Below, in pieces: positions 4,518 to 60,881 of a stretch of DNA of 64,000 nucleotides (positions are counted from its first letter, which is position 1; each line of letters opens with the position of its first letter). The translations under genes were made by a program, and so were the position numbers. The stretch comes from Microbotryum violaceum. Taxonomy: Eukaryota. The stretch lies in NCBI GenBank assembly GCA_001244265.2, contig CDLV01000004.1:434001-498000 (forward strand), written 5' to 3'. The notes beneath the pieces were generated by a model. The model ran no database searches. It was not told the origin of the DNA and saw only the letters and a list, made by a program, of their open reading frames with translations.

Positions 4518-6506
4518 ATGGCGTATGCGTCGGTGACTGATCATCATCCGACTCCGCCCGACTACCCGATAACCAGTCCCCATACCCAACCGCCCATGCC
4601 ACCCCAACAAGTCTTCATCATCGTTCGCCCACCCCCTTCCAAAGGTGTAGATCTGAGAAACCTGCAGATCCAACTCGTCAATACCACACGAACTAACCCT
4701 GCGCATCCGAGTCAGGCGAAAGCAGGTGCGCCGACCCCACCCCCACATGCTCTTGGCAAAGAGACGGAAAGTCACTTCGGACCGGATGAAGGCGTCGGAT
4801 CCGAAGGGTGTGGTCAGGGGAGTGGGTCCTCAGCACATCCAGGACCTTGGATAACGAGCGGTACAGCGTCTACTTCGACATTGGGAGCCAAGTCGTTCGA
4901 TGCCGTAGCGGGAGCGACGATCGATTCCCACGACGGACCCATCGGATCGGGGCCGAACGAGATCGATCCTTCTAGTCCGCACCTCATGACACCTTGTACA
5001 GCTCAAAGACCCAGTCATCCAGGTTCAACAGAGATGATTCGAACTACGTCTTGGCAATCCGATAAATCCTCTTCCAGTGCGATCTCAAAGAGTTCGCTGT
5101 CTTCTTCCATTGGCTCGACGGGGACGGGGTACTCAATTGGTGGGTCGAGTGTAGGGACCAAGGGCAGTGGGGGTGGGGGTGGCAGTGGGAGGGATAGAAG
5201 AGGCAGAGGTAGTAAGAGACGGGTTATGCCGTTGTACAATTTGGGTTTTCATTCGTTGTTGCAGACTGTTGTCACGGATGCGGGTGAGTTGGCGAATGAC
5301 GGGGCTTTTGTTCGTTCGAAATCGGTGACTCGGACGAGCTGACGCGACCTGGTGTAAATAGGAACGGACGAGAAGATTGCCAAGTTTTCGAAAAAGGGCA
5401 CGATCGAGATGATGGATTTCGCACTCCTCGAGCCACTCGACCTAAGAGCACCTCCAACCATCTCAACGCCGTCAACTTCGTTGTCGACGGTTACATCTCC
5501 TTTGGCATTGATGCGATCAAGAGTCGCGGAGGAGTTGACGAATGGCGGGCAATCTCTGACGGGAGGTCTGTTATCAAAACTCAAAAAACTAGGGATGGGG
5601 AAAGCGGCGATGAAAGGGAATGGAGGAGGAAGTACCGGAGGAATGACAGCCTCCACATCGTCAAAACGACTTTCCATCAACGAACCACGTCCTAGTCTCG
5701 CCATACCCGACCAAAACGTCACTGTCGTGTCTCCTCGAAAATTACCAAGAGGGCATGCATTCACCCTCACCAAATTCCTGAGGAACGATCTCGTCGAAGC
5801 CAGAGACTTGATAGGGATGACTGTGCGCTTCGAATGGAAGCGCGTGGAGAAGAAGCGGTCAACAGGATTCCGAAATCAAAGTCGTTTCAAGAGTCCAAGG
5901 AAGGCGGGTTCGGACAGGACGGTGGGGACGGATGAGGAGGGGAGATTGGATTTGCCGCTTGAGGGGAGGGGCAGTAGAATGCCCTCGGTGGAGGAGGGTT
6001 CGGGATCGGACGTTTCGATTGGGTCCGAGAGGGCGTCGGGGGAACTGGATCGAGCCGTAATGGGTCTTGAGGGGACTCGACTTTCGTCCGAGGGCTCGGC
6101 GGACGAAGCTCTGGCGGAGCAAGGCGATGGCGAGGACATGGAGGAAGAAGAAGATTCCGACCTCGAGGATTCTGATCGACCCTGGTCTTGCACGCTCTAC
6201 ATCACCCAAGCCAACGCACCACAATCTCCCTCTAAATCCCCTTCCGAACCCTGGTCCCTTCCTCTCGCGCACCTCATCCCAGCACCCTACCACCCTCGCC
6301 TCGTAGCGAACCTTTCTTTCTCGCCGACACTTTCGGATGTGAGATTGGGGAATGGGGCGGGGATCAGTGAGGAGGACTTGAAAGATGTTGTAAGTGTGAC
6401 GGCGTTGTGGGTTGTGGCGAAGGACGGACTGGGGGGACGGGCTGGGGGCCTGAAGGTTGGGAATGGGAAAGGGAAGGGGAGGAAAGGGTCTTTCGAAGGG
6501 GGGTAA
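4518..6506 (+). CDS. Conserved hypothetical basidiomycete protein (2 exons)
   Basis: ORFs 4518-5342 and 5409-6506 join in frame via intron 5284-5361 (GTGAGT..TAG), giving RRVMPLYNLGFHSLLQTVVTDAGTDEKIAKFSKKG; later EDSDRPWSCTL and DLKDVVSVTALWVVAKDG blocks. Confidence 0.8.
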
Positions 6507-22900: not shown

Positions 22901-24880
22901 GACCCGACCTAACAAGCTCTACCAAACGACCCCAAGAAGGATGACCCAAGCGCTGATGCCAAAGCACTACGTCTGTAGGCAAGGTGGTGGCAGTCAGCGC
23001 CAGGTGATCCGCCCGAGGAGGTGGGTGAGAACTTGCCTGAAGCACGTAGTGGTTGCGATTGAGGGCGAAGGAAAGGCGGGAGGTCGCGCTCGAGATCGCG
23101 GTCCCGGTATGTTTCCCAGCCGCGTCGCACTCGTTGGATAGCTCATACCCGTCCTTCATCAGGCCGGCGAGTGAGACGAGTTCAGCGGACAGACCGGGGA
23201 CGAGGAGGACGTCATGGAGCTCGATGGACGCTTCGTCGACACCGAACCGGAGAGTGCCCGTACCGGTCGCCATGGCACTGGAGTTGAAGGCGCCGACGAC
23301 CCGGACGCGCTCCGTGGTGAAGGGCTTGAAGTCGATGAGGAGGTCCCGGCGAGTCGTCATGTGGCGGGTCACACCCGAATCAAGCAAGTAGCGCGGGATG
23401 TCGCTCAGGTACAGCGCCGTGTCGTCGTCACCAATGGGTACGCCGACGACCAAGTATCCCTCGTAGGCCTCGTCCTTGAGCTGAGCCTCGGGTGCACGGT
23501 CGACGGCGACGAGCGCCATTACGTCGGCCACGCCAATGGTGATGTTGTGCTTGGCGAGAACAGCGATGCGGCGGCGAGAGACCTCTGCCGATGGCACCGT
23601 GCATTCGTCGCCAAGATGTCCCTGCTCGTAGCACCTTCTGCACTGCATCCGACCCAGTTTCAGGCGACCAGCGTGCGAGATCCCGTGAGGCCACCTCTCC
23701 TTGAGGCCGGGCACCCTCGAGGCCTGAAGGAAGGGGGGCGCCGAGGGACCGGAAGGACGGCCCGAGGGTTTCGAGCGAGGACGACCCGAGGCTGGCTGAC
23801 TCCGAGACTGCACCCGTGCCGCTAATGCCTCCGCGATGGGCTCGATCTGCCGGCTCGAGGAAAGTGCGGCCCTACGTATCGCGCCCTCAACTTGCTCGAG
23901 CGATGGGAGCGTGCCGATGGAGTCGATGACCGTCACGAGGTTCCTCGGCATCCTAGCCTTCAAGAGGTCCATGCGAACGCCCTCGGACAGCGCGGGCGCT
24001 GGTACCCACTTGTCGAAATCGCTCTGGGTAAACGATGTGCCGTCGATCCTGGCGCGTTGATAGGCTTTGTCACGGGAGACGTGGGCGGCGACGAGGTCCT
24101 CAAACAACCGGTTGAAGTTCGCAAGCCATGGGTCGAGCGCTTCGCCGTCGACAAATGGCTCACACAAGAAGAGGGCGTCGAGCTTCGCTGAGCGCATGAA
24201 ATCGTCCGAAGCGCGACCGAGATCCTTATCGAGCGCGGCCCACAAGTCGTGCGTGGCGTTGGCTTTGACGCGGGCGAAGGTGGACTCCCCCAAGCATACG
24301 ATTAGCGTGTTGCGCGCCTGCGCAAGGGCCTGATCGAGAGCGTCGACATCCTGACGGTACAATCGAAGTTGGTTGCGATAGGTGGCCACATCGTCTACCC
24401 GGTTGTCGCCCTCCAAGCGAGTGAACTCGGACTGCAAAGGCTCGGGGCCGACGTCTAGAACACCGGTGACGTGCTTGAGGCGGCCCTCGCCTTTCAGGAC
24501 GTTCTGAAGTCGCTCCCTGGCAACACCCCAGTTGGTGGCGTCGACTTTGCCGTATAGGTCGCCCATCAGACTGACGTGGTCAGCCGTGGGAGTCGCCATC
24601 TTGGATATGCGCTGCGTCTTTTCTGCGTGCGGATCTGTGCCTTGCGGCAATACAGACGCTACCAAATAACAGACTGACGAGCGTGTAATCCAACCGTCAG
24701 TTAATTGCATATGATAGTAGCCGTAGTGCTAGATGTACGTACCTGACGAGCGTGTAATCCAACCGTGGAGAGAAGACAACGGTTGGTGCGCATCGCCAGG
24801 CTTCACTAAACAAACGCGCGCTTCTAATCAAATAACCGAAAGCCGCCTTCCTGCTAATCCTCATTCACAACACGCCAACT
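19909..24880 (-). mobile_element. Full-length Ty1/Copia LTR retrotransposon (family A)
   Basis: 216-bp LTRs at 19909-20124 and 24665-24880, identical by eye; TSD GGAGT (19904-19908 and 24881-24885); PBS TGGTAGCG (tRNA-iMet 3' end type); PPT GTGAAGGGGCG; domain order gag-PR-INT-RT-RH. Confidence 0.96.
20098..24599 (-). CDS. Copia gag-pol polyprotein (several frameshifts)
   Basis: [14 protein letters not shown] knuckle, [10 protein letters not shown] protease, [52 protein letters not shown]. Confidence 0.92.
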
Positions 24881-28827: not shown

Positions 28828-31000
28828 CTAGTGGGAACCCGTTAAATTAACGGGAGGATGATATTCAAAAAATAGCAGGATAATCGAACAGTCTACATGA
28901 TTTCAGCGCAGAGGTTAAGAAAACATGGGTTGTACAGCAAAGAAACAAAATCCATTCATCACCGAAACAGCCTGGCCGTTGCTTGTTGCCGGACTTGGCT
29001 TTGAGCCCTCGTGCAATGAGGTCCGGACGGTTGTATGCTTTGTCGTTCGGCCCCAGTGCAGCCTTGATTTCCGGCCATTCGGGGTTGCACGTCACCGTGA
29101 TGAACAGCGAAGGCTTCCCGTATTTGACGACACACGCCATCGCATCTTGGTAACGCTGCGTGACCTCCCGCGGGCTATTCTTGAACGTCGACCCCAATAT
29201 CACCGAACGTCCAATCTGATCCGGGGTCAAACCTTTGGCAACGGCGTCGGTGATGCCCTGCGCCGTGGTTAGGCGCAGGTTCTCTTGATGAAAGCGGATA
29301 TAGTTAAGTCGATCGGTCTCGACTTGGGAGTATCCGTAAGTGACAAAGTCGAGGAGGAGACGCTGGGTGGCATGTGGGATTGAGAAGTAGTCGCCGCGTT
29401 CGTGCAAGTAGTATGCAAGATATTCGTCGTCTCCTTGATGATCGTCCTAGATGTTCGAGCATTCTATGTGAGTCTGTGCTTACATCTCAACAGAAAGGAA
29501 CATATGAGAAAGAGCGGAAGACGCTTACGTTCACCATCACCATTCTCTTCGTCCCCTCCTCGCCGTCTTCATCCTCATCGTCGCGGTCTTCGTCCTCCTG
29601 TTCGTCTTCTTCATCTGGACCAAGGCCGTCAAGTAGCTCGCGCAATTGGACACCATTGTCGATCTGCTCTCGGTTTCTGGCGATGGGCGGCCCAGCTTGG
29701 TTGAAACCGCAAAGAGGAATGTTGGGGTGGAAGCCATCTTCCCCGCGGGAAGAGTAGTGGGTACCGGAGAGGCATCGCAGACGGATGGAGCGAGCTAACG
29801 ATTTGGTACTTGGGCCGACCATCGGGACATCGATCACCGTGCACCTGGAGAATAAGGTCTTGCGGTCCACGATCCCCGTGTTGGTGTCGGAATCGCAGAT
29901 AAGCATCGCCATTTCCGTGCTTGACGTAGGAAGGTTGTGGGTGCGTCGGTCTCGGCCTGGTGGTAGGCAGAGGCGCAGGATCATCCACTCTTTGGCCGTA
30001 TCTCAACCTGCGCGAGGTTTGGCCGATGCGAACTCCCTCACAAAGCGATTGCCGGTGCGCAGGATGGACTCGAGCTTGGTCAAAGTAGATCGTCGCATGC
30101 GACTGTCTGCGCCGTCGGGTCCAAGTCGAGTGTCGGTGGCCTCGGCCGGGTCGATCAGCCATGTTTGAGCAAAGGCTGGGCGTTGATTCACGGCAGGGAT
30201 CAGGGCGCCGAGTCGATGGTAAAGACGACCGAACACGCGAAACACGGGAGGTCCTAGAGTGTCCACTTGAGTTTGGTCCCAGTGGGCAGCGAGCGAAGTA
30301 AAGGACAGTGCGTTATTGTAAGACCGGGCATCCTCGCGAAATGCTTTAGCGTCTGTGTAGGTGCATCGCACAGTTCAGCATGTGGGCCATACTGCAGAGA
30401 GATGTTGTTGGACGGAGCAACTGACCGCTATCCGAGCCTTGAAGAAGCTGCCGATACTCGAGATTGGGCTGGGGAGGGGGAGGTAGCCAGCCGCACCTTG
30501 CCCTGCGAGCAGCACGCGCTGAAGTGTCTGGTCGACTTCGACCTTTCGCACTCCCAGTGCCGAGCCTTGCAGTGGGTGCACACGGCCGTCTGGGGGCCGA
30601 GGTCGTCGCGGATCGAAACGTGGGCTTGAAGGGTTTGAGCGCGTTTCGAGCCCGGCGCACTCGCCTTCGCGGAGGAGGTGGTGGTGGGGCGAGCCCAGCG
30701 TCGAGTTGGCCATCGCGCTGACCACGCTGTCCGTTCTGCACAGCTGCACGGCGGGCTCGTATACGTGTCGCAATGCCAAGATCGGTTGCATTGTTGTCAT
30801 GACGCGCGGGGGGCTGATTCTGTTGATCGGAGCGGGACGAAGAGGAGGGTCGAGCCGCGGGGCGCCCAGCAGCGGGCGCTCGAGCAGGCCCATGGTACGG
30901 CGCTACCCTCGCGCCCAAGACTTGGCGAGGTTGCGATGGCCCTCCCTGGCGACCTTGGGACCGGGGCATTACACAGAAGCGAAGGTTTGTTCTTGAATGA
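28828..31000 (-). mobile_element. Internally deleted Helitron (RepHel N-terminal part plus 3' end); 5' boundary approximate
   Basis: YNNALSFTSL, YHRLGAL and DAMACVVKYGKPSLFITVTCNPEWPEI motifs; 3' hairpin CCCGTTAA-N-TTAACGGG (28838-28854) then CTAG; lacks the HUH motif and helicase. Confidence 0.88.
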
Positions 31001-31551
31001 GTGTCACTAAAATTGGATGAGAGTGGGAGGGAGAAAGGAAAGGTTCGAGGGAGTGGCACAGGATTATTTACGTGGTTTGTTTTGTTGTTTAGCCCCTAAT
31101 GCCGGTGGTTGACTGCCGGCCGGGCAATGACACGGCGGGCACGCCGCATCACGTGACAAATGTTAGCCCTCGCCCGCGCGTCAGCCGCCAGGCGCCAGGC
31201 GGAGCTGTGCTGTAGAGGCAATGTCATGCAAAGCCAGGCGCCTGCCGTCCATTAAATGCAATATAAGTGTAAGCATTGTTTGACGTCAACTGAAAAACGA
31301 AAGAAAATACTGGGAGCGCTGTAGCTTCGTTGGAACGGCGCGGAAAATACAAAAGTCACCACAGGGCTGGTACATGACTTCTGATCGGAACATGGACACC
31401 ACAGGCAGGTGCGGCAGACACAGCAGTATGCTGGTACATCCACCACAGGCGGCCCGGAGGGCCGCAACCTAGTTAAAAACAGCGATTTAGGTACATTCCT
31501 TAACTCACTTTTTTTTTACTAGTTAGGGTAACTAGTTAGGGTAAAGGGTAA

Positions 31552-34500
31552 CCAGTGGGAACCCGTTAAATTAACGGGAGGATGAAAATTAAATAGCAGA
31601 ATCGTGATCTCAGTTGAAGGTGAAACACACAATACAAAGGACAGCTTCAAAACTATTCCCCATTCATTGCTCTGAGAACAGAGCGGAAGACTGGGTTTGG
31701 GGTCGCGGTGGCTGCCGCTGCCGCTCGATCAACGGCTGTGTAGGTCGTCGTCATCATCGGCGGGGTCGCGAGAGGGCAGTAGCACCTTGATTCGATCAAC
31801 ACTCATGGCTCGAGACAATGCCACATACAGCTGCCCATGAGTGAAGACGGGATGTAGGGAGAGATCGACGCCAACACGATCGAGTGATTGACCTTGGGCT
31901 TTGTTGATCGTCATGGCCAAGGCAACGCGAAGCGGGAATTGGAGCCGGCGCATAGTGAAACCAAGTTGGCGACTGCCAGTCGCATTTGTCTCAAGTCGCA
32001 CGCGAGGGATGAAGACCGTGGTGCCCGCTCGATCTCCGGTCAAGATGATGGCTTGAATGACTCTCGATCTTGCGTGCGACACGATCAGGCGGGTACCGTT
32101 GCAGAGGCCCGCGTCTGGGTCCAAATTGCGAAGAAGAACGACGGGGATCCCTTCCTTAAGACGCAAGTGATGCGCGGGAAGTTGGATGGGTTGATTGAAT
32201 GTTGATACTCTGGCGAAATCAGTTCCGGCGCCATTCCACCCCAGTTTCGCCTGCCTCAACGACCTCATCTGCGCTGCGATACTCGATGTAGTCGCCATTG
32301 AACTCTTCCAGCAGCTTGGCATTGATGTGATCGACCGTTGCATTATGCGGAGCTAGGATTGCCTGACGTGAGAACAGCTGAATCAGGTCTTCGAGGGACT
32401 CCTTGTTCACGGTCCTTAAACCGGGGTAGACAAAGTTGATCAACCCTTCGGCCGTTCTTTGACCGTCCGGAAGCAGCAGGTAATCAGGCAACTGCGAAAC
32501 GGATAGAAGGGGTCTTAGTGTCGGTTGGTTGGGTAAAAGAGGGGAGCCAAACGTACTGCAATTTTGTCGTATGGGTGCATGTTGGCAGTTCCATCTCCCA
32601 CGGTGAGTAGCCATTCCGCAAAGTCGCGCGTTCGAGCCAATTGAGCCTCGTCCATCGCATCAGCGTTCGAGCTGAGACGCATGTTCTCGGTAAGTCGCAA
32701 GACACGAACGTCGCGCCAGAAGTCTGCCTTGATGAGGGATGCATCGACGATTTGACCGGGAGTTCCTTTGGGAACGACAGGAAGACACTGGCGAAAGTCC
32801 CCTACAAATTGGAAACCTCGTTAGCATGCCGCTGTTCAGAGCGGAGGCGGAAGAGCCCAACTGACCCGCAAAGATCATTGTCACCCCGCCGAAGTGCTCC
32901 TCGGTCCCTCGGAGATCACGCAGTAAACGGTCGACAGCTTCCACCGCGAATCGATGCGCCATTGGGGCTTCATCCCAAATGATGAGCTTGGTGGTACGCA
33001 GCATCAGCGCGAGATCACTCTCCCTGTCGACTGGACACGTCGAGGTTGGCAAGGTGTCGAGTGGGATTCGAAAAGTTGAATGCGCCGTGTGTCCTCCCTT
33101 GAGAAGCAACGCCGCTACTCCGGACGACGCCACCGCAATCGCTTGGTCGCCTCGAGCTCGCACAGTATCGAGAAGGGCATTTTCCACAAAAGTCTTGCCT
33201 GTACCCCCAGGTGCTAGCAGGAAAAACACATGCTGCGGCCCAAGGTTGTTGTCGCGCATCTGATCGACGACATCGAGCTCGACCGCGCGAAGACACTCGT
33301 CAAATGCAATTCGTTGGTCGTGGTTCAGACGGGCATGCGCCGCTTCGGCATCTTGCGCGCATTGCTGGCGATCAAAACGGGGAAGCCGTTCCTCGAGACG
33401 ATCAAACAGCCGCACTTCGTCCTCGGTCGGCTCGGGAAGATCAAAGAAGGCCAAAGTTCGATCGTTTGCCGCAAGGAGGAGACGAATCTTGTTGAGGATC
33501 CACAGGCGGATGGTTTGATCGTTGACGGGCACGTCTTCATAGCGTTCGATGTGATAACGGGCATCGTCGCTAAGAGAAGCAAAGTGACGATCCAGCAAAG
33601 CTGGTGGGTTGGCAACCGTCGCATGGATGAGCATGAACACGAATAACTGGCGTAGTTGGTCACCGGTTTCAATCTGTGCAGCTTCCCTGAGACAAATGTG
33701 ATGCTCGCCATCGTCGGCGAGAAGTCCGCGAGCGGCGCAAGCGGCGCGATAGGAAGGATACACGACGTCTTCGAACATGAGCAGGTCCGCAAACGATGTC
33801 GGGCCCATGACGACCTCGAGGAGCAGTCTGAGGTAAAAGCGCTCCCCACTACGCAGTGGGACGGTGTAGATTCGTCCAATGACATTGCGATCATGGACTC
33901 GGCGTTTCCAGCGCAACTTCTCCTTATTCCAGGAGTAGTAGCGCGGCACATTCGTGTAGAGCAACGTGGTAGTGAGCTCGCCGTCGGGAGCTGCAGCGCA
34001 CAGGTCGAAGAAGCCGGTCAGTTTGGAGCGAGTGGGCGGAGTGTCGAGGGGCAGCGGTTCATTGGGATTGATCTGCACAGATTGTTGATTCTCCAGATGG
34101 ACCGGTAGTCGATTGACGGGTGGCCACACTCTACCGACCGAGAATCCGAATAGGCGGTGGACCGCTTCTGGAGCACTGATGTAGCGACCTTCGACGAACT
34201 CGTTGATCTCATCTCGAACCGGTTCGTCCTCGCGAGCCCCTTCACCGTTCGCTGCACGCTCAACACGCGCCACAGCTCGATCCGGACCTTTGTACACATA
34301 CTTGAAGAGGTACTTGATCGCGCCGATCGTTGTCACAGCCTCCACATTGATATGCGCATTGTACTTGGCGCAGAGATAAGGCGAGTACGGCACGCAGTCA
34401 CCATCGTTGTAGATAACACCCCCATTGACAACGGCGTGGCGAAAGCGTCGGCGATACAACGGGTAGCCTTCAGGGTGCATGCGGGTGTGGGGGTTCTGTT

Positions 34501-36392
34501 CGCGAGGAAAACGGCGCTTGCACCTCGGATTACCGTACTTGTCCTTCTCCATGCAGGGCTGAGTCGAGTTTCCGCCACACTTGCCATGCAGCATGTGCTT
34601 TGTAACGGTCTCGTGGAGATCAGGATAGCGCGAAGGATCGGGTATCTCGGTCGAGATCATCTTGTCGATCGCTTCCGTCGACGAAGGATGATCGTCCGGC
34701 GCGAGGGTGATGAGGATATGGGCATGTGGCAGGCCCCGCTTCTGATACTCAATCACATGTGTATGCGTCAGAACCACGCCAAAACAGCCTGCACGTTGCT
34801 TGTTGCCAAAAACGTCGTCGCAGAGTCGGTTCAGCTTGGCCTCAAACACTCGTGCAATGAGATCCGGACGGTTGCATGCTTTGTCGTTCGGCCCCAGTGC
34901 AGCCTTGATTTCCGGCCATTCGGGGTTGCACGTCACCGTGATGAACAGCGAAGGCTTTCCATATTTGACGACGCAAGCCATCGCATCTTGGTAACGCTGC
35001 GTGATCTCGCGCGGGCTATTCTTGAACGTCGAGCCCAAAATCACCGAACGTCCAATTTGATCCGGGGTCAGGCCGTTGGCAACAGCGTCGGTGATGCCTT
35101 GGGCCGTGGTGAGGCGCAGACTTTCTTGATGCAACCGGATGTAGTTGAGTCGATCGGTCTCGACTTGGGAGTATCCGTCAATCACGAACTCGAGGAAGAG
35201 ACGCTGGGTGGCATGCGGAATGGAGAAGTAGTCGTCGCGTTCGTGCAAGTGATATGCAAAGTATTGGGAACGCGAAACTCGGGTTGATCCACCTCGACCC
35301 CTCTTGTTTGATCTTCGTCCTAGATTTTCGAATAATTTATGTCAGTCTGAGGGTGCGTCTCAACAGAGAGGTATATGAGAATGAGCCGAAGACGCTTAAC
35401 TTACGTTCACCATCACCATTCTCTTCGTCCTCCTCGTCGCCTTCATCCTCATCGTCCTCCTCTTTGTCTTCTTCATCTGGACCAAGGCCGTCAAGTAGCT
35501 CGCGCAATTGGACACCATTGTCGATCTGCTCTCAGTTTCTGGCGATGGGCGGCCCAGCTTGGTTGAAACCGCAAAGAGGAATGTTGGGGTGGAAGCCATC
35601 TTCCCCCGCGGGGAAGATTAGTGGGGTACCGGAGAGGCATCGCAGACGGATGGAGCGAGCTAACGATTTGGTACTTGGGCCGACCATCGGGACATCGATC
35701 ACCGTGCACCTGGAGAATAAGGTCTTGCGGTCCACGATCCCCGTGTTGGTGTCGGAATCGCAGATAAGCATCGCCATTTCCGTGCTTGACGTAGGAAGGT
35801 TGTGGGTGCGTCGGTCTCGGCCTGGTGGTAGGCAGAGGCGCAGGATCATCCACTCTTTGGCCGTATCTCAACCTGCGCGAGGTTTGGCCGATGCGAACTC
35901 CCTCACAAAGCGATTGCCGGTGCGCAGGATGGACTCGAGCTTGGTCAAAGTAGATCGTCGCATGCGACTGTCTGCGCCGTCGGGTCCAAGTCGAGTGTCG
36001 GTGGCCTCGGCCGGGTCGATCAGCCATGTCTGGGCAAAGGCTGGGCGTTGATTCACGGCAGGGATCAGGGCGCCGAGTCGATGGTAGAGGCGACCAAACA
36101 CGCGAAACACGGGGGGTCCTAGCGTGCCCACTTGAGTTTGGTCCCAGAGGGCAGCGAGCGAAGTGAACGACAACGCGTTGTTGTACGACCGGGCATTCTC
36201 GCGGAATGCAACCGCTTCTGTGTGGGTGGGTAGAACAGTTCAGCATGTGGGTCTACTGCAGACGAACGTTGTTGGACGGAGCAACTGACCGCTATCCGAG
36301 CCTTGAAGAAGCTGCCGATACTCGAGATTGGGCTGGGGAGGGGGAGGTAGCCAGCCGCACCTTGCCCTGCGAGCAGCACGCGCTGAAGTGTC
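31552..36392 (-). mobile_element. Helitron encoding RepHel (HUH Rep plus PIF1 helicase), 5'-truncated
   Basis: ORF 32660-35248: VIEYQKRGLPHAHIL, KYLFKYVYKG, APGGTGKT, IIWDEAPM; ORF 31729-32343: AMTINKAQGQSL, HGQLYVALSRA; same 3' hairpin followed by CTGG|T. Confidence 0.95.
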
Positions 36393-37144
36393 GTACGTCA
36401 TCGTGATGAGCAGCGGAGGCTTTCCATGTTTGACAACGCACGCCATCGCATCCTGGTATCGCTGCGTGATGTCGCGCGGTCTATTCTCGAACGTCGAGCC
36501 CAAAGTCATCAAACGTCCAATTGGGTTCGGGGCCAAGCCGTTGATGCCTTGGGTCGTGGTGAGGTATAGGTTCTCTTGATGCAACCGGATGTGTAGAGTC
36601 GATCGGTCTCGACTTGCAGTATATTCATAAATCACAGACTCCAGGAAGGGACCGTGGGTGCAATGCGGGATTGAGAAGTACTCGTCGCCTTTGGCAAGTA
36701 GTGCGCAAAGAATTGTGAACGCGAGACTCGCCACCTCGACCCCTTTACTGGACCTTTGTCCTAGGTGTTCAAAAGTTCAATGTCAGTCTGTGCTTGCGCC
36801 TTAAACAGAATGGAACATCAGAGAAAGAGCCGAAGACGCATACGTTCACCATCACCATTCTCTTCGTCCCCCGCCGTCTTCATCCTCATCGTCACAGTCT
36901 TCGTCCTCCTCTTCGCCTTCGTCAGCAAGACCGAGACCGGCAAGTACCTCCCGCGATTGGACACCTTTGCCGATCTGCTCTCGGTTTCTGGTGATTGGCA
37001 GCCCAGCTTAGCAAAGCCCGCAAAGAGAAATGTTGGGGTGGGACCCATCTTCCCCTGCAGGAAATAGTAGTGGCTACCGGAGAGGCAAGGCAGACGGATG
37101 GAGTGAGCTGATGACTTGGTACTTGGGCCGACCATCGGGACATC
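36393..37144 (-). mobile_element. Degenerate Helitron Rep fragment
   Basis: Diverged paralog of ~34930-35700 (QRYQDAMACVVKHGKPPLLITMT). Confidence 0.8.
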
Positions 37145-40100
37145 TGTTGCAACAAGGACTAAGAGGTACTCCACGACTCAGCTCCGAGATACACGAGTGA
37201 GATGATGAGAATAGCGTGGAGAAGGAACCCAGAAGGAAAAAAAGACGCAAAGACAAAGATAGGCGCGCGGTCCTGGTTCTACCACGCGCCTGGGTATTTC
37301 CAGGGCGCAGGGTGTTATTTCCACGCACGCGCTGATTTTACCCAAGGGCGTGGTAATTCCAGCCGTCACTTGGGAATACCAGGCCGTCGGGTATTACCCA
37401 GACGCCTGGGTATTTCCAGGTCGCGAGGTGATATCGCCCTGGCCGAAGGAGATTCTGCCCGTGGTAATACCAGCCGGCACCATTATTACCCTCGCCCGGT
37501 GGTTTTCCCAGCCAGGTATGGTATTGTCCACTTATATATTGGATCTAGATCCTAGTCATACCGCTACTCTCAGCTGTCTCAGCATGAGCCAAATGACTTC
37601 TAGCCTAGCAGATGGAAAACAGCTGGGAATGGATTACAAGTTCAAGAAATTGGGCCGAGCTTCGTCCTCCAATCGGTCAAAAATATACTCGCGAGGCTCC
37701 TCTCGAGTCTCGACCCACCCTCCGATAGATGCGACCAGATGAGCCTAAGATGCAGCGCAGATCTATAATCTCGATCGCTCCCAGAGTTCCTTGACCTCGA
37801 GTGAAAAACAAGTTTTGGTGCCTCTGCGCACTGACAACAAATGCAGCCTTTCTTTTTTGCCGCCTTTGCGCTGGCTTGGCCACCGGAGTCCGCTCGATAG
37901 CGTCGACGGCTTCCAATCGACTTAGATTAAGAGACCTGATCTTCCCTACCAGGAAAGTTTGTGGAGTGAGAGGCACAAATTAGTGTTTGTACGTGAGTCG
38001 TCGCCGTCGTCGTCGTCGTCGAATGGGAGCGAGCTACTAGAGCTGGAGCGGTCCTCGTATTCCAGGTCAGGAGACACCATTCCCCAATCAAATGCCGCGT
38101 CAAACTGTTGTGTCGCGAAAATCTTCTTCGTCCAATCCTAGCGCTTGGTCCTCACTTGACCCCATTGATCCCCGACCGAAGAAGCTCGCTCGGACTCGTA
38201 ATCTCCTTGAGAAGAGTAGGGACCTTTGGGACTGGTGGGCACTCCATATTGCGCTTCGTTTGTGGCTGATTGTGGTGGCGAGCGACTTGCAAACCAACCA
38301 GGAGTTGGTAAAGGGGCCTGGAACGATTGGGCCTCAGGAGCAAGCAACGTTGGAGGTTCCGATGGCTACCGCGAGAACTCGAGGATAGCAGTTGCGTCGG
38401 CTCTGGCAGAGTCAACAGGTTGTAGGCGTTTGTGGCGGTAGAACTAGTGTCGCTCTTGATACCATTGCATCATTGCACAACGAACAATGGCATAGGCGAG
38501 AAGACTGGTTGCGTGTCATGGTGGCGCAATCGATTGGTTAATTACCGTGAGACGTGAGACTGAAGAGCAACGAACGACGCTAAGTCCGGCAGGCCATCCG
38601 GGACATTAGGGCTACAGTAATGAGCAATACGAGCAGCGATTAGGCAGATTTGATTATGTGCGCTGAAGAATGGCGCCATGCGTCCGCGCGCTTCTTTCCT
38701 TCTTTCGCCTTCGATCCACTTGTGCCCACGTCGAAGCTCAACCGTCCCCGCCTACGTCTTCCTACCATGACACGAACATCGTCGACCACGGCAAGACGTA
38801 CAACAAGGATGGACAAGGAGAACTAACCACCGCATGATTGGCGCCCACGTGTGTACAGAGAGCTGAAATCTTCGCGGTCTGCGTCTGCACCGCCACAGTT
38901 GAGGGAACTTGCTGACGTGTTCTTTTTCAACCCCGCCGCCGTCCTTCACCATCGGCCCACTGCGGCTACCTGTCTTCTTGTTTCTTCCAGCCAGAAAATA
39001 CGTTGAAAAGACAAGGGTTCTATGAGCCTGCGCGAGTATACTATACTTGGGTTTGCGTGAGTACCGGCGGCTCAACGATCGGGGCGCGACGCCATCTCGT
39101 CGATCTGACTCCTCAGTGCTCACCATCTGTGTGATGTCCTTCGACCAGTCGGTTGTACGGGATGCACTAGTAAAGGCAGGAATCACCACACCTGACCCCA
39201 TCAACCTTTATGGTTGGCATGTGGACTCCAGACTACCACACGCCTAAGGGGTTCAACCTCAAGGACGCGTTCAGGCTCATTCAAGCCAAAACGCAAAGCA
39301 ACACTACTGTGTGGGACGTTTTGGACCTGCAAAACAACGAGATATCGTCAAATATGTGAGTTGCGTGGAACCTGCCAGTCTTGTACGGAGCGTGCGCTTG
39401 CTCGGGCACTCACTCGTCATCCTCTTTCAGATTCGTGAGCGCACGGCTTTCTTAAGGGTCATATCGGGCGACTGGCTCTATGAAGAACTTGTTATTGATG
39501 CGTTGGCGAATGTCCTGAGCCGCGTATAGACTGCAGTACGACCGTGAGGCCTGTCGGTTGGCGGGAATCATGGGACGGCTTTTCAGGGCGGGCATCACAA
39601 GATTGCTCAACGAGCTAGGCGTAGGATCTGCTCTGAAGGTTAGTCGCTACTCTCGATTGAACAAGAGGCCCGGGTCAGTCAAAATCGGCGAAGGAGGCGA
39701 ACGCTAAACAATCTTCTCGCATTAGCCAGAAGACGATCACCAGGTGGGTCCGTCGCAGAGAAGAAAGCGAGGAAGAGCAGTCTCGGGTAGAGGAAGAGGA
39801 GGAGGAAGAGGAAGAGGAATAATTAGAGCCGACTAAAGGGAATAAGAAACGGGCAAGAGGAGCGGCAGCCGGAGCTTCGGGCGGTTTAGATCTTGATCAA
39901 TCCGACAATCCAGACAAATGGGAGGAGCCTGTGACGGACGTGGACACTCAGTTTGTTGCTTTGTAGTGTACCTATATCATAATACAGTAGAAAACCCTGC
40001 ATTGAAAAACTACAATTCGGATATGAGCATTAGTACTACAAAGGTAACACCCATTACAAAAAACCTAATGTTAATTGCGCTCCGTCGTGCTCCGCACAAG

Positions 40101-40279
40101 AGCCCCTATTGAGATTTTTCGGGTGGAAATACCAGCTGAGAAAGTTAAGACCCAATCGACAGAAATGCCAGCGGCTTGGGTAATACCCCTCGTGAGGTGG
40201 TAATACCCGCGCGGCTGGAAATACCAGTGGGTCGGGTATTTTTGGTCGTCGCCGACTTGAAAAAGGAAACTCCTATTGG

Positions 40280-41703
40280 ATGGACAACAACAACAACACC
40301 AACAACGCCAGCCATGCTGCTATACCACCTCTTCGCCCTGACCCTCCCGATCCTCCGGCCAGGCCCCCGCCACCACCATCAAATCATACTCCGCCGCGGT
40401 CGGCGCCCGCTCCGCAACACGGAAACGCCACCGCCAACGCCTCGACTGCCGTCGCCGCCCATCCACTGATGCACAGCATCGAGAATTGTGTCATCATCAA
40501 CACCCCACCCTCAACCTCGGTCGAGCAAGTCCTCCTCGCGCTTGACAAATACTACCCTGGCCTTACCGGCGCAATGCCATGCGTCATCAAGGGTCAGCGC
40601 GGCCTCCGCTTTCCCAAGGCCGCCGATCTCGACACCCTGGTGGCCAACGGCGGCACTGTTGGCAAGACTCTGTGCAAAGTCGAGAAGCTGTACAGCTCTA
40701 CTAGAGGAGGTGTTGTACAATGCACCCTTACGGGCTTTTTCTCCGACCCGAGGGCCTCTGCCTATTCGATGAGCAGATCGCTGCCTATGGCACGGTCCTC
40801 CGTCGTCGCATCCAGTACATTGGAAAGACGAAACACATCTCTGGGGTGTACGACTTTATCCTTGCCCTTAAGGATGTAGATATTTTGCCCCCTGCCTCAC
40901 TTTCTATTGCTCGTGACGGTGTCACTGAGCGAATCCCATTGAGGATCACCGGTGGCATGCGCCACTGCGTCTTCTGCCGTTCCGCGGCTCACGTCCGTAA
41001 GGATTGCCCCGTCGCCCCGGCGTGCAAGTCCTGCGCGAGCACCTCGCACGCCACCCAGCACTGCCCGGCCCGTCATGCGTCGAGCCCCCAGGGACCCCCA
41101 CGTCACGTGCCCCGCAAGCCTCCACCGTTACCACCGCCGCCCCCGCCGCCGTGTCCAAGTCGATCTCCCCGGCCTCTGCCCACGACCGCACGACCAAAAA
41201 ACGTCGAGTGGAACAGGATCTGGCTGCCCAGACTGAAGATCTGTCCAACAGAGCTCAGCCCGATTCTCTGTCGAAGAATGCCCGCCCGAGTTCTCCTTCA
41301 ATTTCCCTTGCAAAACTGCCACTCCTCCTGCCCCCAGCCTGCCTCCAATCAGGGAATTGCCTACTCCCTCGTTGAAAAATCCTCCGAGTCCCCCAGCTCA
41401 GAGACCACCTCTCCATCCCCAAGCCCTCCTCCGGCCACGCCAAAGTCGATCATAACTCGATCCAAGTCGATTGCCGCCCTCTCCAAGCCAGCCACTCGTG
41501 AAGCTCCTCCCACTGCGTCTGCCCTCGAAGCCTCCGAGCCGAGCCCCGAGCCGTCTTCGCCCACGCCGTTGCCCTCAGCCGCGCCCAAAGCCCGACCCGA
41601 TGACGCCGACACCGACGACGAGGCCGACGAAGAAGCCGAAGACCAAGAAGCACCTCCTAAGGACGTGGAAGACGCTATGGACCAAGATGATGAGCACAAC
41701 TAA
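40280..41703 (+). CDS. LINE ORF1 (gag-like, two CCHC knuckles; frameshifted)
   Basis: CVFCRSAAHVRKDC and CKSCASTSHATQHC. Confidence 0.85.
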
Positions 41704-44700
41704 AATCCCAAACGTGTCTTTTGTTGCTGCCAACGTGCAGTCAATCAATGAAGACCGTAAGCGTGCCTCTCTTTTCTCCAATCTCCGCTCCCATAACGCC
41801 GACGTCTTTCTCCTGAGCGAAACTGGCCGACCTTCCCCGAAAGGGTGGCCCAGTGGACTCAGGAGTGCCAAGACTTAAAGCTCTCCGCTCTTTTCACTCC
41901 TTTCAACAACACTGCCATACTTTGGAAGAGCGACTCCGTGGTCATGACTTTGGATCCCGAGTCGCCTCCAAACACTCTTCGTGCCTCTTTCTCTTTCCCG
42001 GACCGAGTCACCGACGCCACCTTTTGTGTGGGTGATTCAAAAGTCCGGGTTGTATCAATATACGCGCCTTCCTCCGACAAGCCAGACAAAAAACGCTTCC
42101 TCTCACACCTCAGCACCGCCCCGACAAGTTGTACGTGACGAACCCTCGCCGCCTGCGCTCCTAGTCGGGGGGACTGGAATTGTGTTGAGTCCCAGCCCCT
42201 CGATTCGGAGAACCAAAACAGAACGAATTATGGGGGTCAGGAGATGCGCGACTTTGCCACGGCCAACAATCTTTTCGACGCCTATCGGCTCCATCATCCC
42301 AAAGGACGAGCCACGACGAATCGCTCAGCGCCCGGCACGTGCCGTCGCCTTGACCGCATCTATGTCTCGCCTGATTGGGTCGACCTCTTCCATGATCACA
42401 AAATTTGGGCTCCTGTCCTCAAACCGACGCACTCAATGGTTGTGGCACGGTTCCAAGTGCCGGGCGCAATTGACATCGGTCCGGGCAAATTCAAGCTGGG
42501 TTTGCACGTGATCGAGGGCGACGCGACCTGCGAGTACCTCACCTCCATTGTCCGCACCCTTTACAACAAAGCCCTCCTCCAGACGCCCAACGATCCACCA
42601 GCAGCTTGAACGTCCACCAAACACCGCCTGCTGCCCGAGCTGCAGGCTCTGGCCCGGACTTTCGCTCGGTTCCGTCGTGGCGGGTCGGAGCAAGAGAGGG
42701 CTGACCACTCGCGCTACGGCGCGGCCCTGCGGTCCCGCCTCGACCCATCTCTGGCGGGTCCCTCTTCCATCTTCATCCGCCTGCGCAAAGTGCGAGCATC
42801 CGACCTGATCCCTTCGCTCACGGTCAACGATGTTGTTCATTCCGACCCTGATTCGATGCTTGGAGCGGCCAGCGACTACTTCGAGCGGGTCTATGAGGAC
42901 CGCCCCATCGATGACGCGGCCCTGACGGCCTCGCTCCAACTCGCCTCTTCCCGCGGACTCATTCAAGCTCGAGGAAGCGTACCCGTTGGAGGAGATGACA
43001 AAGGCTCAAAGAGGCGTGTAAGTCGAACTGTTTGCCAGAGCCTGACAGCCTCCCGGTTGAGTTCTATCGCGCTACGTGGCCGGCCACTGGCCCAATTCTT
43101 CGAGACGTCATCAACTCGATCCCCACCGAGGCCCGTCAGCCTGGACCTCTTCCCCGCAACACCGCCCACATCCATCTCATCCACAAATGCGGCGAGAGGG
43201 ATCAGCTCTCGAACAAACACCCCATATCGCTTATCAATGCAGACAAGCGCATCATCTCGCAAGCCCACAACCAGCGCCTCGCTCCCCTGCTCGAGTCCCT
43301 GATTGGCCCAACCCAACGTGGCTTTGCTCCGAACCGTTGGATCGGCACGAACATTGCTGAGGTCCAATGTTTCATGGACCCTGGACTTCCAGGCTCAACA
43401 CCCGTGTCTGGCATGCTAGCGGTGATGGACTTTGAAAAGGCTTACGATCGTCTTTCCCACCCGTACCTTGATGCATTCCTCTGCGCCGTTGGCCTCGGCC
43501 CCAAAGCCCGCCAATGGTACCGAGCGACCTACACCAACCAATCCGCTTCGATCTTCCTCAACGGTTGGCTCTCTTCCACTTTCGACATCCTGTCGGGCAT
43601 TCGGCAAGGTGATCCTTTGGCTCCGTCTCTCTTCGTCCTGGCGATCGAAGGTTTTGCCTGTCAGATTCGATTCAGAGTCAAGGGCATCGATATTGCGGGC
43701 CTCCAAAACGTTCGCGAACTCCTTTTTGCCGACGACGCTTGCTGCGCACTCCACAACCTCTCGGACCTCGACCACCTCAATCGGGCGATCGAGCTTTACG
43801 AACGGGCAAGTGCCAGCAAGCTCAGCAACGTCAAATCTTTCCTCTACCCCCTTGGAGCTTTTCGGGATCGGTCGATCGCCCCAGATCGGGACCTGGCGTC
43901 TCAGCGATTCGCAGTTTCGCTACCTTGGTATTCAGGTCGGGGTGGAGATCGCCGAGGATGCGGGCTGGGAAGATGTCAAGGCCTTGACCATCGCTCGGAT
44001 ACGCTCGATTCCGATGTACGATCTCCCATATGCAGCCAAGTGTTCGATCATCAACATCTACTGCTACACAAAGATCTTGTACTACAGTCGATTCCTTCCC
44101 GCCCCAAGAGCGTTGTCAAGGAGATCGAGGAGGCCGCCATGCTCGCCATTCACGGTCGAGCTTCGGATGGTACTCAGCGACGTCCGAAGGTCTCCCGGTC
44201 ACGCCTCTGCACCCCTCTTGATCACGGCGGCTTCGGTTTGTTTGATTGATCTGCCTCGGCGTCTAGCAATTGATCACGCGAAGTGGGTCTTCCAGCTCCA
44301 GGCCCCGGACGGCTGCTTCACACGCCACCTCTTCGACATCCGCATCCGCCTCCAGGCACCAAACGAACCAACCCCTTTCACCTTGTCCAGACCGGCCCCC
44401 AACCAGCATCGTTGCCCTTGGATTTGGATCTGGTAGGCTTACTTTTGCCATCCTCCCCCAAAGTGGGACCATGCGGTGAGAAAAACGACAAAACTTCTTC
44501 CTGCTCGTTGGGTCCGATACTTCGAAGCATGGGCGTTGGTGACCACGCTCAATCCCCCGGAACTCTCCAAGAGCCAGAACCTCGAGCAATGGGCGACGCA
44601 CGTACTCTATTTCCCAGCGGGCCACGGAATACAACTCTCGGTAAACCCGACGCTTTTTCGAGGGCCGATGGCGAGGTGATGACCCCGTCTTCGTTTGTGA

Positions 44701-45245
44701 ACGCGTCCAAACGCCACCAAGTCTTCATCTTCCCCCTTATCTTCCCCAAGGGACACCAGAAGGTATTCGATCTGCCTGAGCAACGCTGGAACGCTTGGTG
44801 GAAGGCTTTGCGCAAGGTTCGCCGGGTTCACTCGGACGCCGAGGATACCGGCCACCTTCTCTCCCTGGGGTCCCTCCATCCGGGAAGCCAAGTCGCCTCC
44901 CCAACCAGCCCACATCCCAACAATCGATCTACCTCCTGTGTGATGTGCCTCTCGGAAGCACCCGAGTGCCTGGTTCACCTCGCGGTCGGCTGCCCATTTG
45001 CCCGGCGCCTCTGGTCTGCTCTGTCCCCGACCCCCCACCCAGTCTTTGTGGACTTTGTATGCCCGGTCGTGTCTCGCTCGAAACGTCGACTTGTCGAACT
45101 ACGAGTCCTCTTCTTTCACTCGATCTGGAAGCTCTGTCGCCGTCGTCGATTCTCGTCGGATCTTTTGGAACCGATCACCGAAACGGAGTTCGAGGGGCTT
45201 CGAGCCTCTATCCAGGAGTCCAAGGGTCGCCTAGTGTCTCTGTAA
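41690..45245 (+). CDS. LINE ORF2: AP endonuclease, reverse transcriptase, C-terminal zinc motif (multiple frameshifts)
   Basis: ANVQSIN, DVFLLSET, SIYAP, RLDRIYVS, DFEKAYDRLSH, GIRQGDPLAPSLF, LFADD, CVMC..ECLVHLAVGCPFARRLW. Confidence 0.92.
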
Positions 45246-45816
45246 GGCACCAAAGGGGGTTTTAGTGGGTATGGTTGATCCTGGTTCAGGGTCAATGAGT
45301 CCTACACTACTGGCTTCTGCCAGTGTGTGTAACAGCATTCCCTCCGACTTTTCCGAAGATTTCTAGGTATTAATATAATTATGCTGTTAATGACGTCTAT
45401 CAAATAAAAATAAAAACCACCTCACGAGGGTATTACCCAAGCCCCTGGTATTTCCAGCCGCGCGCCTGGAATTACCAGGCCAAAAAGGCCCTCAGTGTCG
45501 GCAACTCGACATCGAAGAGGGCACACCTGACCTGGGCCTTATCTGCTACCTGGGGTAGCAAGGCTGCAACCCGCCAGGGCTGTGCCTTGGAAGAGGGTTA
45601 ACTTCGCGAACTTCAGCTATTGCCTAAGCGGGCCGCAAGCGCACGTACCTCAGGCGCGTGCCCGCGCTTGTAATTGGAATTGGCAAGAGTTGGGCCTCGA
45701 CACCGCCAGCGCCCCATCTTTGGGCCGCCTACCTTGTCCTCTTTGTTTGTGGATGTAGATAACAAGTGAGGCTGGCTGTGTAGACTAGCTGAAAAGCTCT
45801 CATTCTCATTAGTGTA

Positions 45817-45900
45817 TCAATGAGTCCTACACTACTGGCCTAGCCAGTGTGCTTAACTGCATTCCCTCCGACTTTTCTAAAGTTTTCTAGGTATTGGTAT
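45817..45900 (+). repeat. Diverged second copy of the LINE 3' UTR core
   Basis: TCAATGAGTCCTACACTACTGGC..GCCAGTGTG..GCATTCCCTCCGACTTTTC..TTTCTAGGTATT is shared with ~45293-45371. Confidence 0.8.
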
Positions 45901-46127
45901 CACTATACTGTTATTGCAATGTAACAAACTAGGGCTCGTGGGGGCGCTCCGCGTCCACCTCCCTGCGTAAATGAATATAACAAATGAAAGAATAAAAATG
46001 CTAGCGTGCGCTGCCAAAATCAGGAGATCGGGGCAGTGCTCTTTTCTCATCTTCACCACTCGCTCGCTACATAAGTTCACTCTTTCCTCACAACACCGAA
46101 TCTATCCAAACGCTCAAATTCGCTACC

Positions 46128-46331
46128 ATGGCCCCCATCGCATTGTCCACCCCTTTCGCCGTCTCAGCCAAGTCCCAGCCTGCCCCGAGCCGCCTCGAAG
46201 AGCGCGGGTCTCCAGTCAACGTCACTCGCACCTACTTTCACTCTGAGAAGGACAACACTGGCAATCTTGTCGACGAGGAGCGCAATCCCAAGGATAATGT
46301 CCTTGGTGGGGAGTTCTGCATCATCGCCTGA
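46128..46331 (+). CDS. Putative lipopeptide pheromone precursor / CAAX peptide (67 aa)
   Basis: Ends VDEER-NPKDNVLGGEF-CIIA-stop; CT-rich leader, TACATAA box ~60 bp upstream, ACCATGG start context. Confidence 0.7.
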   Translation: MAPIALSTPFAVSAKSQPAPSRLEERGSPVNVTRTYFHSEKDNTGNLVDEERNPKDNVLGGEFCIIA

Positions 46332-47164
46332 AGGGGGACGCCTGCCTGAAAATGTGGCCCTTCGGAACTGCATTAAGCAGGGCTTGTCACGGTAGCGAGC
46401 AGCCGATGTGTGAGTCTAATAGATGTGCCAATGGGGATTGATCCGCCAGTGGGACCTGAACATGTAACACATGCGGCTGACCCTACTCGTACTTTTTCGA
46501 CATCGGAGCGACTCTCCAGCCGTGCGCATCACCAGACTACTGCATTGTCCGCCTTACCTCACCGGCCAGAAGTACTATCGACCTGTACATATATTATACT
46601 GCCGTCCCCAGAGTGATACATCACATATCGCAAGAGATACAGGCGTCTACACTACGTGGTATCAGAATGGCTTTCGGATGTGATCCCAAAGTCCGCTCCA
46701 ATGTGATCCCAAAGATGCATCCAATGTGGGACCAGAGTCGCCTCCGACGTGAGCCCGAAAGCCGGGCCGCCACCACCCCCCGGGGGGGTTGGGGTATGAG
46801 GCGCCTTTGGGAGGACCCCCGAAAGCCCAGCCATAGGCAGCCCTCTAAAAACGGCCTTTTTCGAGGCAAAGTGTCTAAATTTTTTCCAGATTTTGACTGA
46901 AAATGTCCAAATATGAGGGCCGCCTAGTGTTGAATAATTTTTGAAAACTACTCTACAAGCTCTACAATGCTCAGAAATTTTTCTGCGCACTGCGTTTTCA
47001 CCGCGCGCGGGCCGGAAAGGTCGCGCGCGCGCACACCAAGAGCGCCGCCAGCGCTCCGCTCCACACCCGCCCCGCCGCGATCCACCGCCGCGATCCACCG
47101 CCGCGCTTGATGGGCCAAGCTCTGACAAAGCTTACCGCCATACGAGCATGAGCCAGGCTGACCT

Positions 47165-48609: not shown

Positions 48610-53483
<4,874 letters not shown>

Positions 53484-54107: not shown

Positions 54108-56113
54108 CAATTCTCAGTTGGCTTGTAGACTAAGGAGAACAGCCTGACTTTGAGACCTTATCTAGTGCAGCAAACAACTCGTGATATAGTCTCGAGTGGT
54201 GCTCTAATTACATACATCAACCACATCAACCTAAAAATGTGTAACATCTCCAGATTCGAAGATGTGGTGGTCTTGGAATTGGACAAGGTTTCTAAAGGAT
54301 TGAAGTTAATGAGCAATTGGAAAAACTGCGCCCCTGTATCTTCAACCGGACGACCAAATGGAGAGCGCTCTGCCTCGTGTCAGTGCCAGGCGTCGACTCG
54401 GCGCAGAGGGGTCGCAGTTGAATGTGGAAACACAGATATCGCATATGTGTTGGGAGCTGTTACAGCTGGCCCTGCGCCTTGCGCAAGCTCGGCTGCGGCG
54501 GGAGGCGACCGCATTGTATTTGGGATGATGGACACGAGTTGGCGGAGACGTTCGACACCAATCAGGCTGAGGGTGCGAGGACCATCTACATCGAATCTCT
54601 CGTACAACCGCTGGATGTCCATGGCAACTGGAAGACATCGACCAACGAAAGCAATCGCTTCTCCTTCAGCGTCGTTATACCTAGCTCAACAAAGCACACA
54701 ACTTCGCCGGCGCGCTGTGAATTGTCGGCCTCCATTGACATCTGTGGATCCCAGATTTGCTGTAAAAAGTCTCTCTGCTGACATCAGATGTGATGAGTTG
54801 TTTTGGTGGCACTCACTCGCACAAATCTAGCCGTCTTGCAGTTGATGGTGCCTTGCGTGTTTCGCATCTTGTTACCGGATCCGAGCAACGTGACTGCCAA
54901 TGCACCTGCACCCTCAAGGCGCCGCCATCCTTTGTCAAGCGAGCTGCCAAAGTCCATCGCATAGAGGGTTCTTGGTGTAGTCGTTTGCATTCGACACCAG
55001 AGAGTTATCGACGTGACACTGCCTCCGTGGAAGACTGCGACCTCTTTGGTCAAGTCGACAAAATCTTGCGAAGGGCGTCGCGCCGTTTTCTTGAGCGTGT
55101 GCAGCTTGTAGCCCGGCAGCTGGGCATGCAAGGCATGACCCCTCGCAAAGTGTCCCGGAGATCGTCCATTGTAGGTATGTCGTACTTGAGTCGGAGGATC
55201 ATCATCATGTTCCGCATCTCCGCCGAATTCATGCCAGACTCAACAAGTTTTGACTTGCTTCTCATCCCCCCTTTGATGTAACCCATCATCGTCTCCGTTC
55301 TGCAAGCCGAGTACTCGCGAAGCGGCCCCATTATCTTCATAACATCGGGAACGTGCATAAGACGATGATTCGTGGCGGGGGAACAGATGAAGGAACTCGG
55401 AATCTCGATCATAGAGAAGCTTCTTGCGCAGTAGCAGCGTCTGTTTGATGAGAACATAGAGGTAGGTGTACATGATGGGAACCTCGCCCTTTTCATTGAG
55501 CTCGTATAGACTAAGTTGTTCGAGCCGGTCGACGTCCGGTAGGCGATCTAAAAAGTCAACGGAGTTGTCGATGAAGACATCGGTCTTCATTGCCACAAAC
55601 ATCCGGATGGTGAGCGCCGTCAGTTGCTCGAACTTGGGTTCCTTGAATTGCTAGTACGAAAGCGGTCCCAGGTCACGCAAGATGAACAGTTCCCGTTCGA
55701 TTGCTTTCCATTTTTTCCTTTTCTTGGCTAAGGGCCTGACAATCACACCCTCCACTCTTGCGAGGTACGGCCAAGACAACAGCTGCGCACGAGTCATGCA
55801 AGTGATCACGTCGGAGGACAACATCATGGAGTGCCTGCGTGCCTTCGAGTCCAAGTTGCCAACGAGGATATTGATGAAAGTGCTGCCACTGTTGATACCA
55901 ATCAGATGCATATAATCCAATGGTAGGAACATGGAGTAAGCATCCTTGAACAAGTCAAGCGCCTCGATCGGAGCTTCGCCTGATATCCCCGTACAACGCC
56001 GCAGCGATTCAAGCTTGGTCGGGTGTCGTTTCATTGATTTGACCACCCGACGGGAGTGCTTGTAGTTGCGCTCGTTATCCAATCGAACGTCCCGTCCACC
56101 GGGGGTTTGGAAT

Positions 56114-60881
<4,768 letters not shown>

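Follow-up and report, generated by a model that had tools for sequence, protein, structure and literature searches.

In Saccharomyces cerevisiae (a-factor) and Ustilago maydis (mfa1/mfa2), mating pheromones are made as short precursors whose CAAX end is farnesylated and methylated and whose N-terminal extension is removed, and they act on an STE3-type receptor. During a-factor-type biogenesis the CAAX cysteine is farnesylated (an alanine at X directs farnesyl), the AAX residues are clipped and the cysteine is carboxymethylated. The closest described system is that of the anther-smut genus Microbotryum, whose pheromone loci were located with the help of Rhodosporidium sequences as queries and of their CAAX motif (Xu, Petit & Hood, Heredity 2015/2016, PMC4675872). 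The text of that paper describes a1 loci as tandem repeats of YPKATYTLPQC and a2 loci as carrying one iteration each, differing between loci; an a1 peptide and two a2 peptides were synthesised with farnesyl and methyl ester, the latter two (ERNPKDNVLGGESC(farnesyl)-OMe and ERNPMSNFWVAVC(farnesyl)-OMe) being derived from M. lychnidis-dioicae a2 genomes/loci. Both a2 peptides triggered conjugation in a1 cells and not in a2 cells, and cells given the peptide of their own type continued division. The same text reports that the N-terminal extension is more conserved than the mature peptide, and that the conserved form was present in all species with a2 sequences except one and was the stronger inducer. 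Passages of four further sources (PMC12119880, PMC6581054, 10.1101/2021.10.29.466223 and PMC7898863) assign two pheromone genes to the PR chromosomes of Microbotryum, and the peer-review file of PMC12119880 characterizes pheromone genes as small and rapidly evolving.

In the 64-kb stretch of DNA analysed here (the window), we found on the forward strand an ORF of 67 codons with ACCATGG around its ATG and a TGA stop, the translation of which, read directly from the window, is MAPIALSTPFAVSAKSQPAPSRLEERGSPVNVTRTYFHSEKDNTGNLVDEERNPKDNVLGGEFCIIA. EER motifs lie at E24-R26 and E50-R52, the C-terminus is CIIA, and this single, C-terminal CAAX box leaves room for one peptide iteration; the intact ORF, the EER-...-IIA end and the second EER upstream, all of which the initial annotation had pointed out, are thus present exactly as described. 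Prenylation of Cys64 is predicted by analogy with the established a-factor-type pathway. The features of the locus and of its surroundings are collected in Table 1.

Table 1. Features of the a2 pheromone locus and of the transposable elements in the window (positions count from the first letter of the window)
Feature	Position	Strand	Basis
KDZ/CxC1 transposase fragments	12611-14062		Pfam
Copia element, 216-bp LTRs (19909-20124, 24665-24880) 100% identical	19909-24880	-	
Three related Helitron pieces (Helitron_like_N, PIF1 helicase), internal duplications 78-93% identical	28868-37144	-	
Degraded non-LTR (LINE-like) retroelement in several frames, upstream of gene	40196..45265	+	RVT_1 E=6.6e-18 on 42999-44246; ORF pattern
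A/T-rich TATA-like stretches, candidate core promoter, 129-154 bp 5' of ATG	45974-45999	+	Sequence reading
a2 mating pheromone precursor gene (variant paralogue), probable	46128..46331	+	67 codons + TGA, intron unnecessary; homology
N-terminal pro-region M1-E50, best-conserved part of precursor	46128..46277	+	Family alignments
phero_a2_F primer site	46188..46203	+	0 mismatches, unique in window; primer as given in the text of PMC4675872
First LEER, within pro-region	46194-46205	+	Sequence
Putative mature pheromone ERNPKDNVLGGEFC, E51-C64	46278..46319	+	Sequence and published peptide
Putative mature peptide NPKDNVLGGEFC, assuming a cut after ER	46284-46319	+	Sequence
F63 codon TTC, sole difference from published ERNPKDNVLGGESC	46314-46316	+	Peptide comparison
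CAAX box CIIA; Cys64 = predicted farnesylation/methylation site, IIA removed	46317..46328	+	
phero_a2_R primer site, 22 bp past stop codon	46353..46369	-	0 mismatches, unique in window; primer as given in the text of PMC4675872
Copia LTR retrotransposon (gag, integrase, RVT_2), downstream of gene	48610..53483	+	
Inverted twin of the downstream Copia element	56114-60881	-	

The nearest described counterpart is the variant a2 pheromone ERNPKDNVLGGESC of M. lychnidis-dioicae, with which the window ORF shares its length of 67 aa, the pro-region, the CIIA end and the single iteration; it differs in having F, not S, directly before the lipidated cysteine. The window gene is almost certainly of the same locus type as the published variant a2 gene. 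The conserved a2 pheromone ERNPMSNFWVAVC, encoded in M. saponariae by g03611, has the same architecture, the DEER-N junction and the C[IV]IA end, while most positions of its mature region differ from those in the window ORF, and that region is shorter by one residue; its counterpart in M. intermedium (BQ2448_7001) is ERNPMANFWVATC. The Microbotryum a1 and Sporidiobolales RHA-type pheromones are likewise farnesylated CAAX lipopeptides from the same fungal class as the window gene, and differ from it in their tandem repeats, which according to the text of PMC4675872 number 3 in Microbotryum a1, 4-5 in Sporidiobolales a1 and 2 in Sporidiobolales a2, against 1 in the window ORF, so that the a1/RHA-type arrangement of at least two mature copies per precursor was not found here. 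The initial annotation had set the missing tandem repeats apart from anther-smut pheromones: the single copy is real, but it is no oddity, since only the a1 precursor is tandem in the published description. At a greater distance, the Ustilago maydis mfa1/mfa2 and S. cerevisiae a-factor precursors follow the same principle, the window precursor being longer (67 aa), and no sequence similarity to either was detected in the searches made. The motif ACAAAGGGA, which we take to be the Ustilago-type pheromone response element, gave 13 matches at one mismatch or fewer in the window versus 14.3 expected, none of them within 5 kb of the gene; this result, like the empty Pfam search with the peptide reported below, weighs against the pheromone reading.

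Searches against curated Pfam families returned nothing for the 67-aa peptide at E<=10, and a word-indexed protein search with the ORF matched all three of its candidates. The closest (P0001) was 99% identical to the window ORF (E=7.8e-36), ends ...ERNPKDNVLGGESCIIA (...GGESCIIA) and carries the published peptide ERNPKDNVLGGESC. The other two, 82-84% identical and both ending in CIIA, were M. saponariae MvSof-1269-A2 g03611 (P0002; 82% identical, carrying ERNPMSNFWVAVC) and g03593 (P0003) from the same 441-kb contig. A profile built from the window ORF and these three sequences retrieved three proteins at E<=1e-3 among 1.84e9 representatives (P0004, P0005 and P0006), two of which (P0004 and P0005) are family members, and the family therefore appears narrow and restricted to the genus. 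One of the two, M. intermedium BQ2448_7001 (P0005; 65 aa), is 57% identical to the window ORF and ends ...DEERNPMANFWVATCVIA. The other (P0004), the M. saponariae gene model g03610 of 209 aa, adjoins g03611, and its last 50 residues are a pheromone precursor; its first 143 residues are Helitron-like, with the N-terminal part 86% identical to the window Helitron at 34594-34178. A Helitron-pheromone fusion or capture by a Helitron was considered for this model and set aside in favour of simpler explanations, namely a gene-model join beside g03611 or an extra copy disrupted at its 5' end. The third protein (P0006), a 627-aa repeat protein (E=1.9e-5) with five stretches falling on profile positions 23-46, was rejected as a spurious, repeat-driven match. 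A second profile search matched 5 of 16 candidates and added BQ2448_7001 and a further sequence (P0007) ending ...QRNAMLPLYCIIA. The homologues in M. saponariae and M. intermedium are annotated with locus tags only.

Across the resulting family the C[IV]IA end was kept in all seven sequences, so that conservation of the CAAX box in relatives, proposed earlier as a check on the locus, holds at the protein level. The alignment further showed a pro-region that is nearly invariant through D-E-E-R-N, followed by 9-11 variable residues; the residue before the cysteine was the most variable position and differed in six of the seven sequences (F, S, V, G, T, Y). Within the pro-region the sequences group by species, S5, Q29, S34 and S37 being common to the M. 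saponariae copies and A5, P29, R34 and F37 to the window ORF and its 99% identical match, whereas the mature region groups partly by paralogue type, with N-V-L in the window ORF and g03593 and N-F-W-V-A in g03611 and BQ2448_7001. One way to read this species-versus-paralogue grouping, as far as the alignment goes, is that gene conversion could homogenise the pro-region while the peptide escapes.

Identification of the gene rests further on published reagents. The peptide encoded in the window differs from the published ERNPKDNVLGGESC by one substitution, S63F, adjacent to the lipidated cysteine, and the primer pair phero_a2_F/phero_a2_R predicts a product of 182 bp flanking the peptide-coding part. 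In a full-text literature search the peptide core occurred in PMC4675872 only, with 3 occurrences, equal to the count of the full GGESC peptide; the F63 spelling was not found in the running text of the papers searched, PMC4675872 included. On the strength of the homology, the bioactive peptide that differs by one residue and the exact a2 primer matches, we conclude, with a probability of about 0.88, that this ORF encodes the precursor of the variant a2 mating pheromone in an anther-smut fungus, in a form closest to that of M. lychnidis-dioicae, and that its transposon-rich setting is the one to be expected on the a2 mating-type (PR) chromosome. Homology and published function thus agree with the initial annotation, which had read the ORF as the precursor of a basidiomycete lipopeptide pheromone, ending in CAAX and yielding one mature peptide, and the case illustrates that a tiny but genuine mating gene can be recognised by a reader working from sequence only. 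The gene family itself is already known, published and functionally tested; the S63F allele is the only element that may be unreported. If correctly identified, the gene would mark the window as belonging to the a2 mating-type chromosome in one of the anther smuts, which serve as a leading model of sex-chromosome-like evolution, and of the two alternatives that the annotation had offered for the locus, that of a marker of a mating-type region is the one favoured.

By analogy with the described systems, the 67-aa precursor would be farnesylated on Cys64, IIA would be clipped and the cysteine methyl-esterified, and a pro-region of about 50 residues would be cleaved off near the conserved DEER|N junction. 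The resulting lipopeptide of 12-14 residues would then be exported and would bind the STE3-type receptor of a1 cells, leading to cell-cycle arrest and conjugation pegs. A genome usually carries two a2 pheromone genes, of which this would be one, while the other would encode the genus-wide conserved ERNPMSNFWVAVC. By analogy with mushrooms, the mature peptide had earlier been placed after ER; a single peptide near ER stands, while the active synthetic a2 peptides began at E-R (PMC4675872), and the N-terminus of the mature peptide may lie before or after ER. The activity of the F63 allele would have to be read across from the assayed S63 peptide, from which it departs at the residue adjoining the lipidated cysteine. 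A vestigial second peptide repeat, suggested by EERGSPVNV versus EERNPKDNV in the two halves of the precursor, was also considered and is unsupported (p=0.072 in the window ORF); similarity between the N-half and the C-half ranged from p=0.015 to 0.63 among six family members, the tests being non-independent.

The ORF was also compared with what chance would produce, using 200 first-order Markov simulations of the window. ORFs of 30-120 aa running from M to CaaX numbered two in the window against a simulated mean of 1.46, and at least one ORF with [ED]R 8-14 residues ahead of the CaaX cysteine occurred in 22 of the 200 simulated windows. As a bare pattern, the 67-aa ORF is no more than chance, and because the pattern by itself is non-significant, the case for a pheromone gene rests on homology and published function. 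The second CaaX-ended ORF (54686..54784, reverse strand, 32 aa, ...RRRSCVLC) has no ER motif and lies in the spacer that separates the two inverted Copia copies. That the 67-aa ORF is accidental and its resemblance to a CAAX-ended protein a coincidence would be compatible with the frequency of the pattern in the simulations and with this other CaaX ORF, but it is the least probable of the readings weighed here, being refuted by full-length homologues with E-values as low as 1e-41 from three named Microbotryum genomes/records, in which start, pro-region and CAAX box are all conserved, and by the exact matches of the published locus-specific primers.

A more serious rival among the alternatives, though an unlikely one, is that the gene belongs to the a2 family but is a decaying, redundant paralogue, its intact ORF drifting under relaxed selection within a non-recombining region invaded by transposable elements and contributing little or nothing to mating. 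Apart from TEs, the pheromone gene is all that was recognised in the 64 kb, and a repeat copy that ends about 200 bp before the ATG leaves little native upstream DNA; the residue before the cysteine, as noted above, varies throughout most of the family. According to the text of PMC4675872, moreover, the variant a2 forms as a group showed no departure from neutrality (Z=-0.82, P about 0.42) and the responses to the variant peptide were weaker than those to the conserved one (t=-2.99, P=0.01), from which it follows that a variant a2 gene may contribute little. Against decay stand the intact ORF with its strong start context, the pro-region and CAAX box, which are still conserved in M. intermedium, and the activity published for the S variant; the same text also reports that among the variant forms, too, conserved positions are more numerous in the pro-region than in the peptide (P<0.001), which points to a constrained precursor. 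A second possibility, raised in the initial annotation, was that of a peptide that resembles a pheromone but serves some purpose other than mating; such roles have been proposed in some mushrooms for pheromone-like genes that lie outside MAT. In its favour, no receptor gene was recognised among the ORFs scanned in the window, but the peptide that differs by one residue elicits a mating response in a1 cells specifically and not in a2 cells (PMC4675872), the homologues come from A2 assemblies, and the literature, in the portion of PMC12119880 consulted, maps such genes to the PR chromosome. A non-mating signal is therefore disfavoured and, in our estimate, very improbable.

With regard to the substitution itself, S63F adds one further state at the site where this mate-recognition peptide varies most. 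That it is non-neutral, altering the potency or the receptor preference of a lineage-specific a2 pheromone, is doubtful on present evidence. Were this reading true, the a2 pheromones would form a pair with one conserved and one variable member, the variant paralogue being the member that evolves, and it could favour a degree of assortative mating between sibling species of anther smut; the text of PMC4675872 states that a role in assortative mating between sibling species is not completely ruled out.

The surroundings of the gene were examined by Pfam scans of 432 ORFs, comprising 164 stop-to-stop ORFs of at least 110 aa and 268 of the 321 ORFs of 65-109 aa, the remaining 53 lying wholly inside five TE bodies and being left out. 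Only transposon domains were recognised; neither an STE3 receptor nor any host gene domain was matched among these 432 ORFs of at least 65 aa, in line with the initial annotation, which had noted the lack of STE3 and the stranding of the gene among transposons. No second a2 copy was found in the window by tblastn (next best E=0.27), and a six-frame search of the window at up to 3 substitutions detected neither the a1 peptide nor the conserved a2 peptide. On a rough tally, TEs of the Copia, Helitron, LINE and KDZ types span about 32 of the 64 kb. Copia, Ty3 and Helitron build-up has been described in non-recombining regions of Microbotryum mating-type chromosomes (10.1101/2022.08.03.502670, in the part consulted), and the TE make-up of the window fits such a region; on the mating-type chromosomes of Microbotryum, a gene isolated among transposons is what one would expect.

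The LINE-like element ends about 860 bp before the pheromone ATG. Between the two lies a direct repeat of about 113 bp (45292-45405 and 45817-45930, forward strand; about 85% identical, at a spacing of 524-525 bp). From the end of its second copy to the ATG there are about 200 bp, which leaves only a short, possibly native promoter; the two copies could belong to one small non-autonomous element, as its terminal repeats, or could each be a solo fragment. On the other side of the gene, the downstream Copia element and its twin are 98.8% identical over 4.6 kb and lie in opposite orientation on either side of a 2.6-kb spacer, so that together they resemble a large palindrome; the twin has one uninterrupted pol frame of 1078 aa, and the pol of the element nearer to the gene is split over two frames. 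The third Copia element, with its identical LTRs, was on that ground very recently inserted, and its coding region is split over several frames despite those LTRs.

Several minor features were also observed. At the start of the window, positions 1-1470 are 97-99% identical to 11553-12760 (1-284 inverted, 559-1470 direct), the latter adjoining the KDZ/CxC1 fragments, and these repeats and fragments are probably parts of one DNA-transposon family. A protein search with the ORF at 5358-6503 returned Basidiomycota clusters only. GC skew was strongly negative (-0.11 to -0.23) over 40001-46000, which takes in the LINE-like element and the DNA leading to the pheromone gene; the remainder of the window differs in this respect. 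About 350 bp 3' of the pheromone stop, three tandem 23-bp units (ATGTGATCCCAAAG...; 70-100% alike) occupy 46678-46746 on the forward strand, and imperfect inverted repeats were seen at 46656-46827, after these units.
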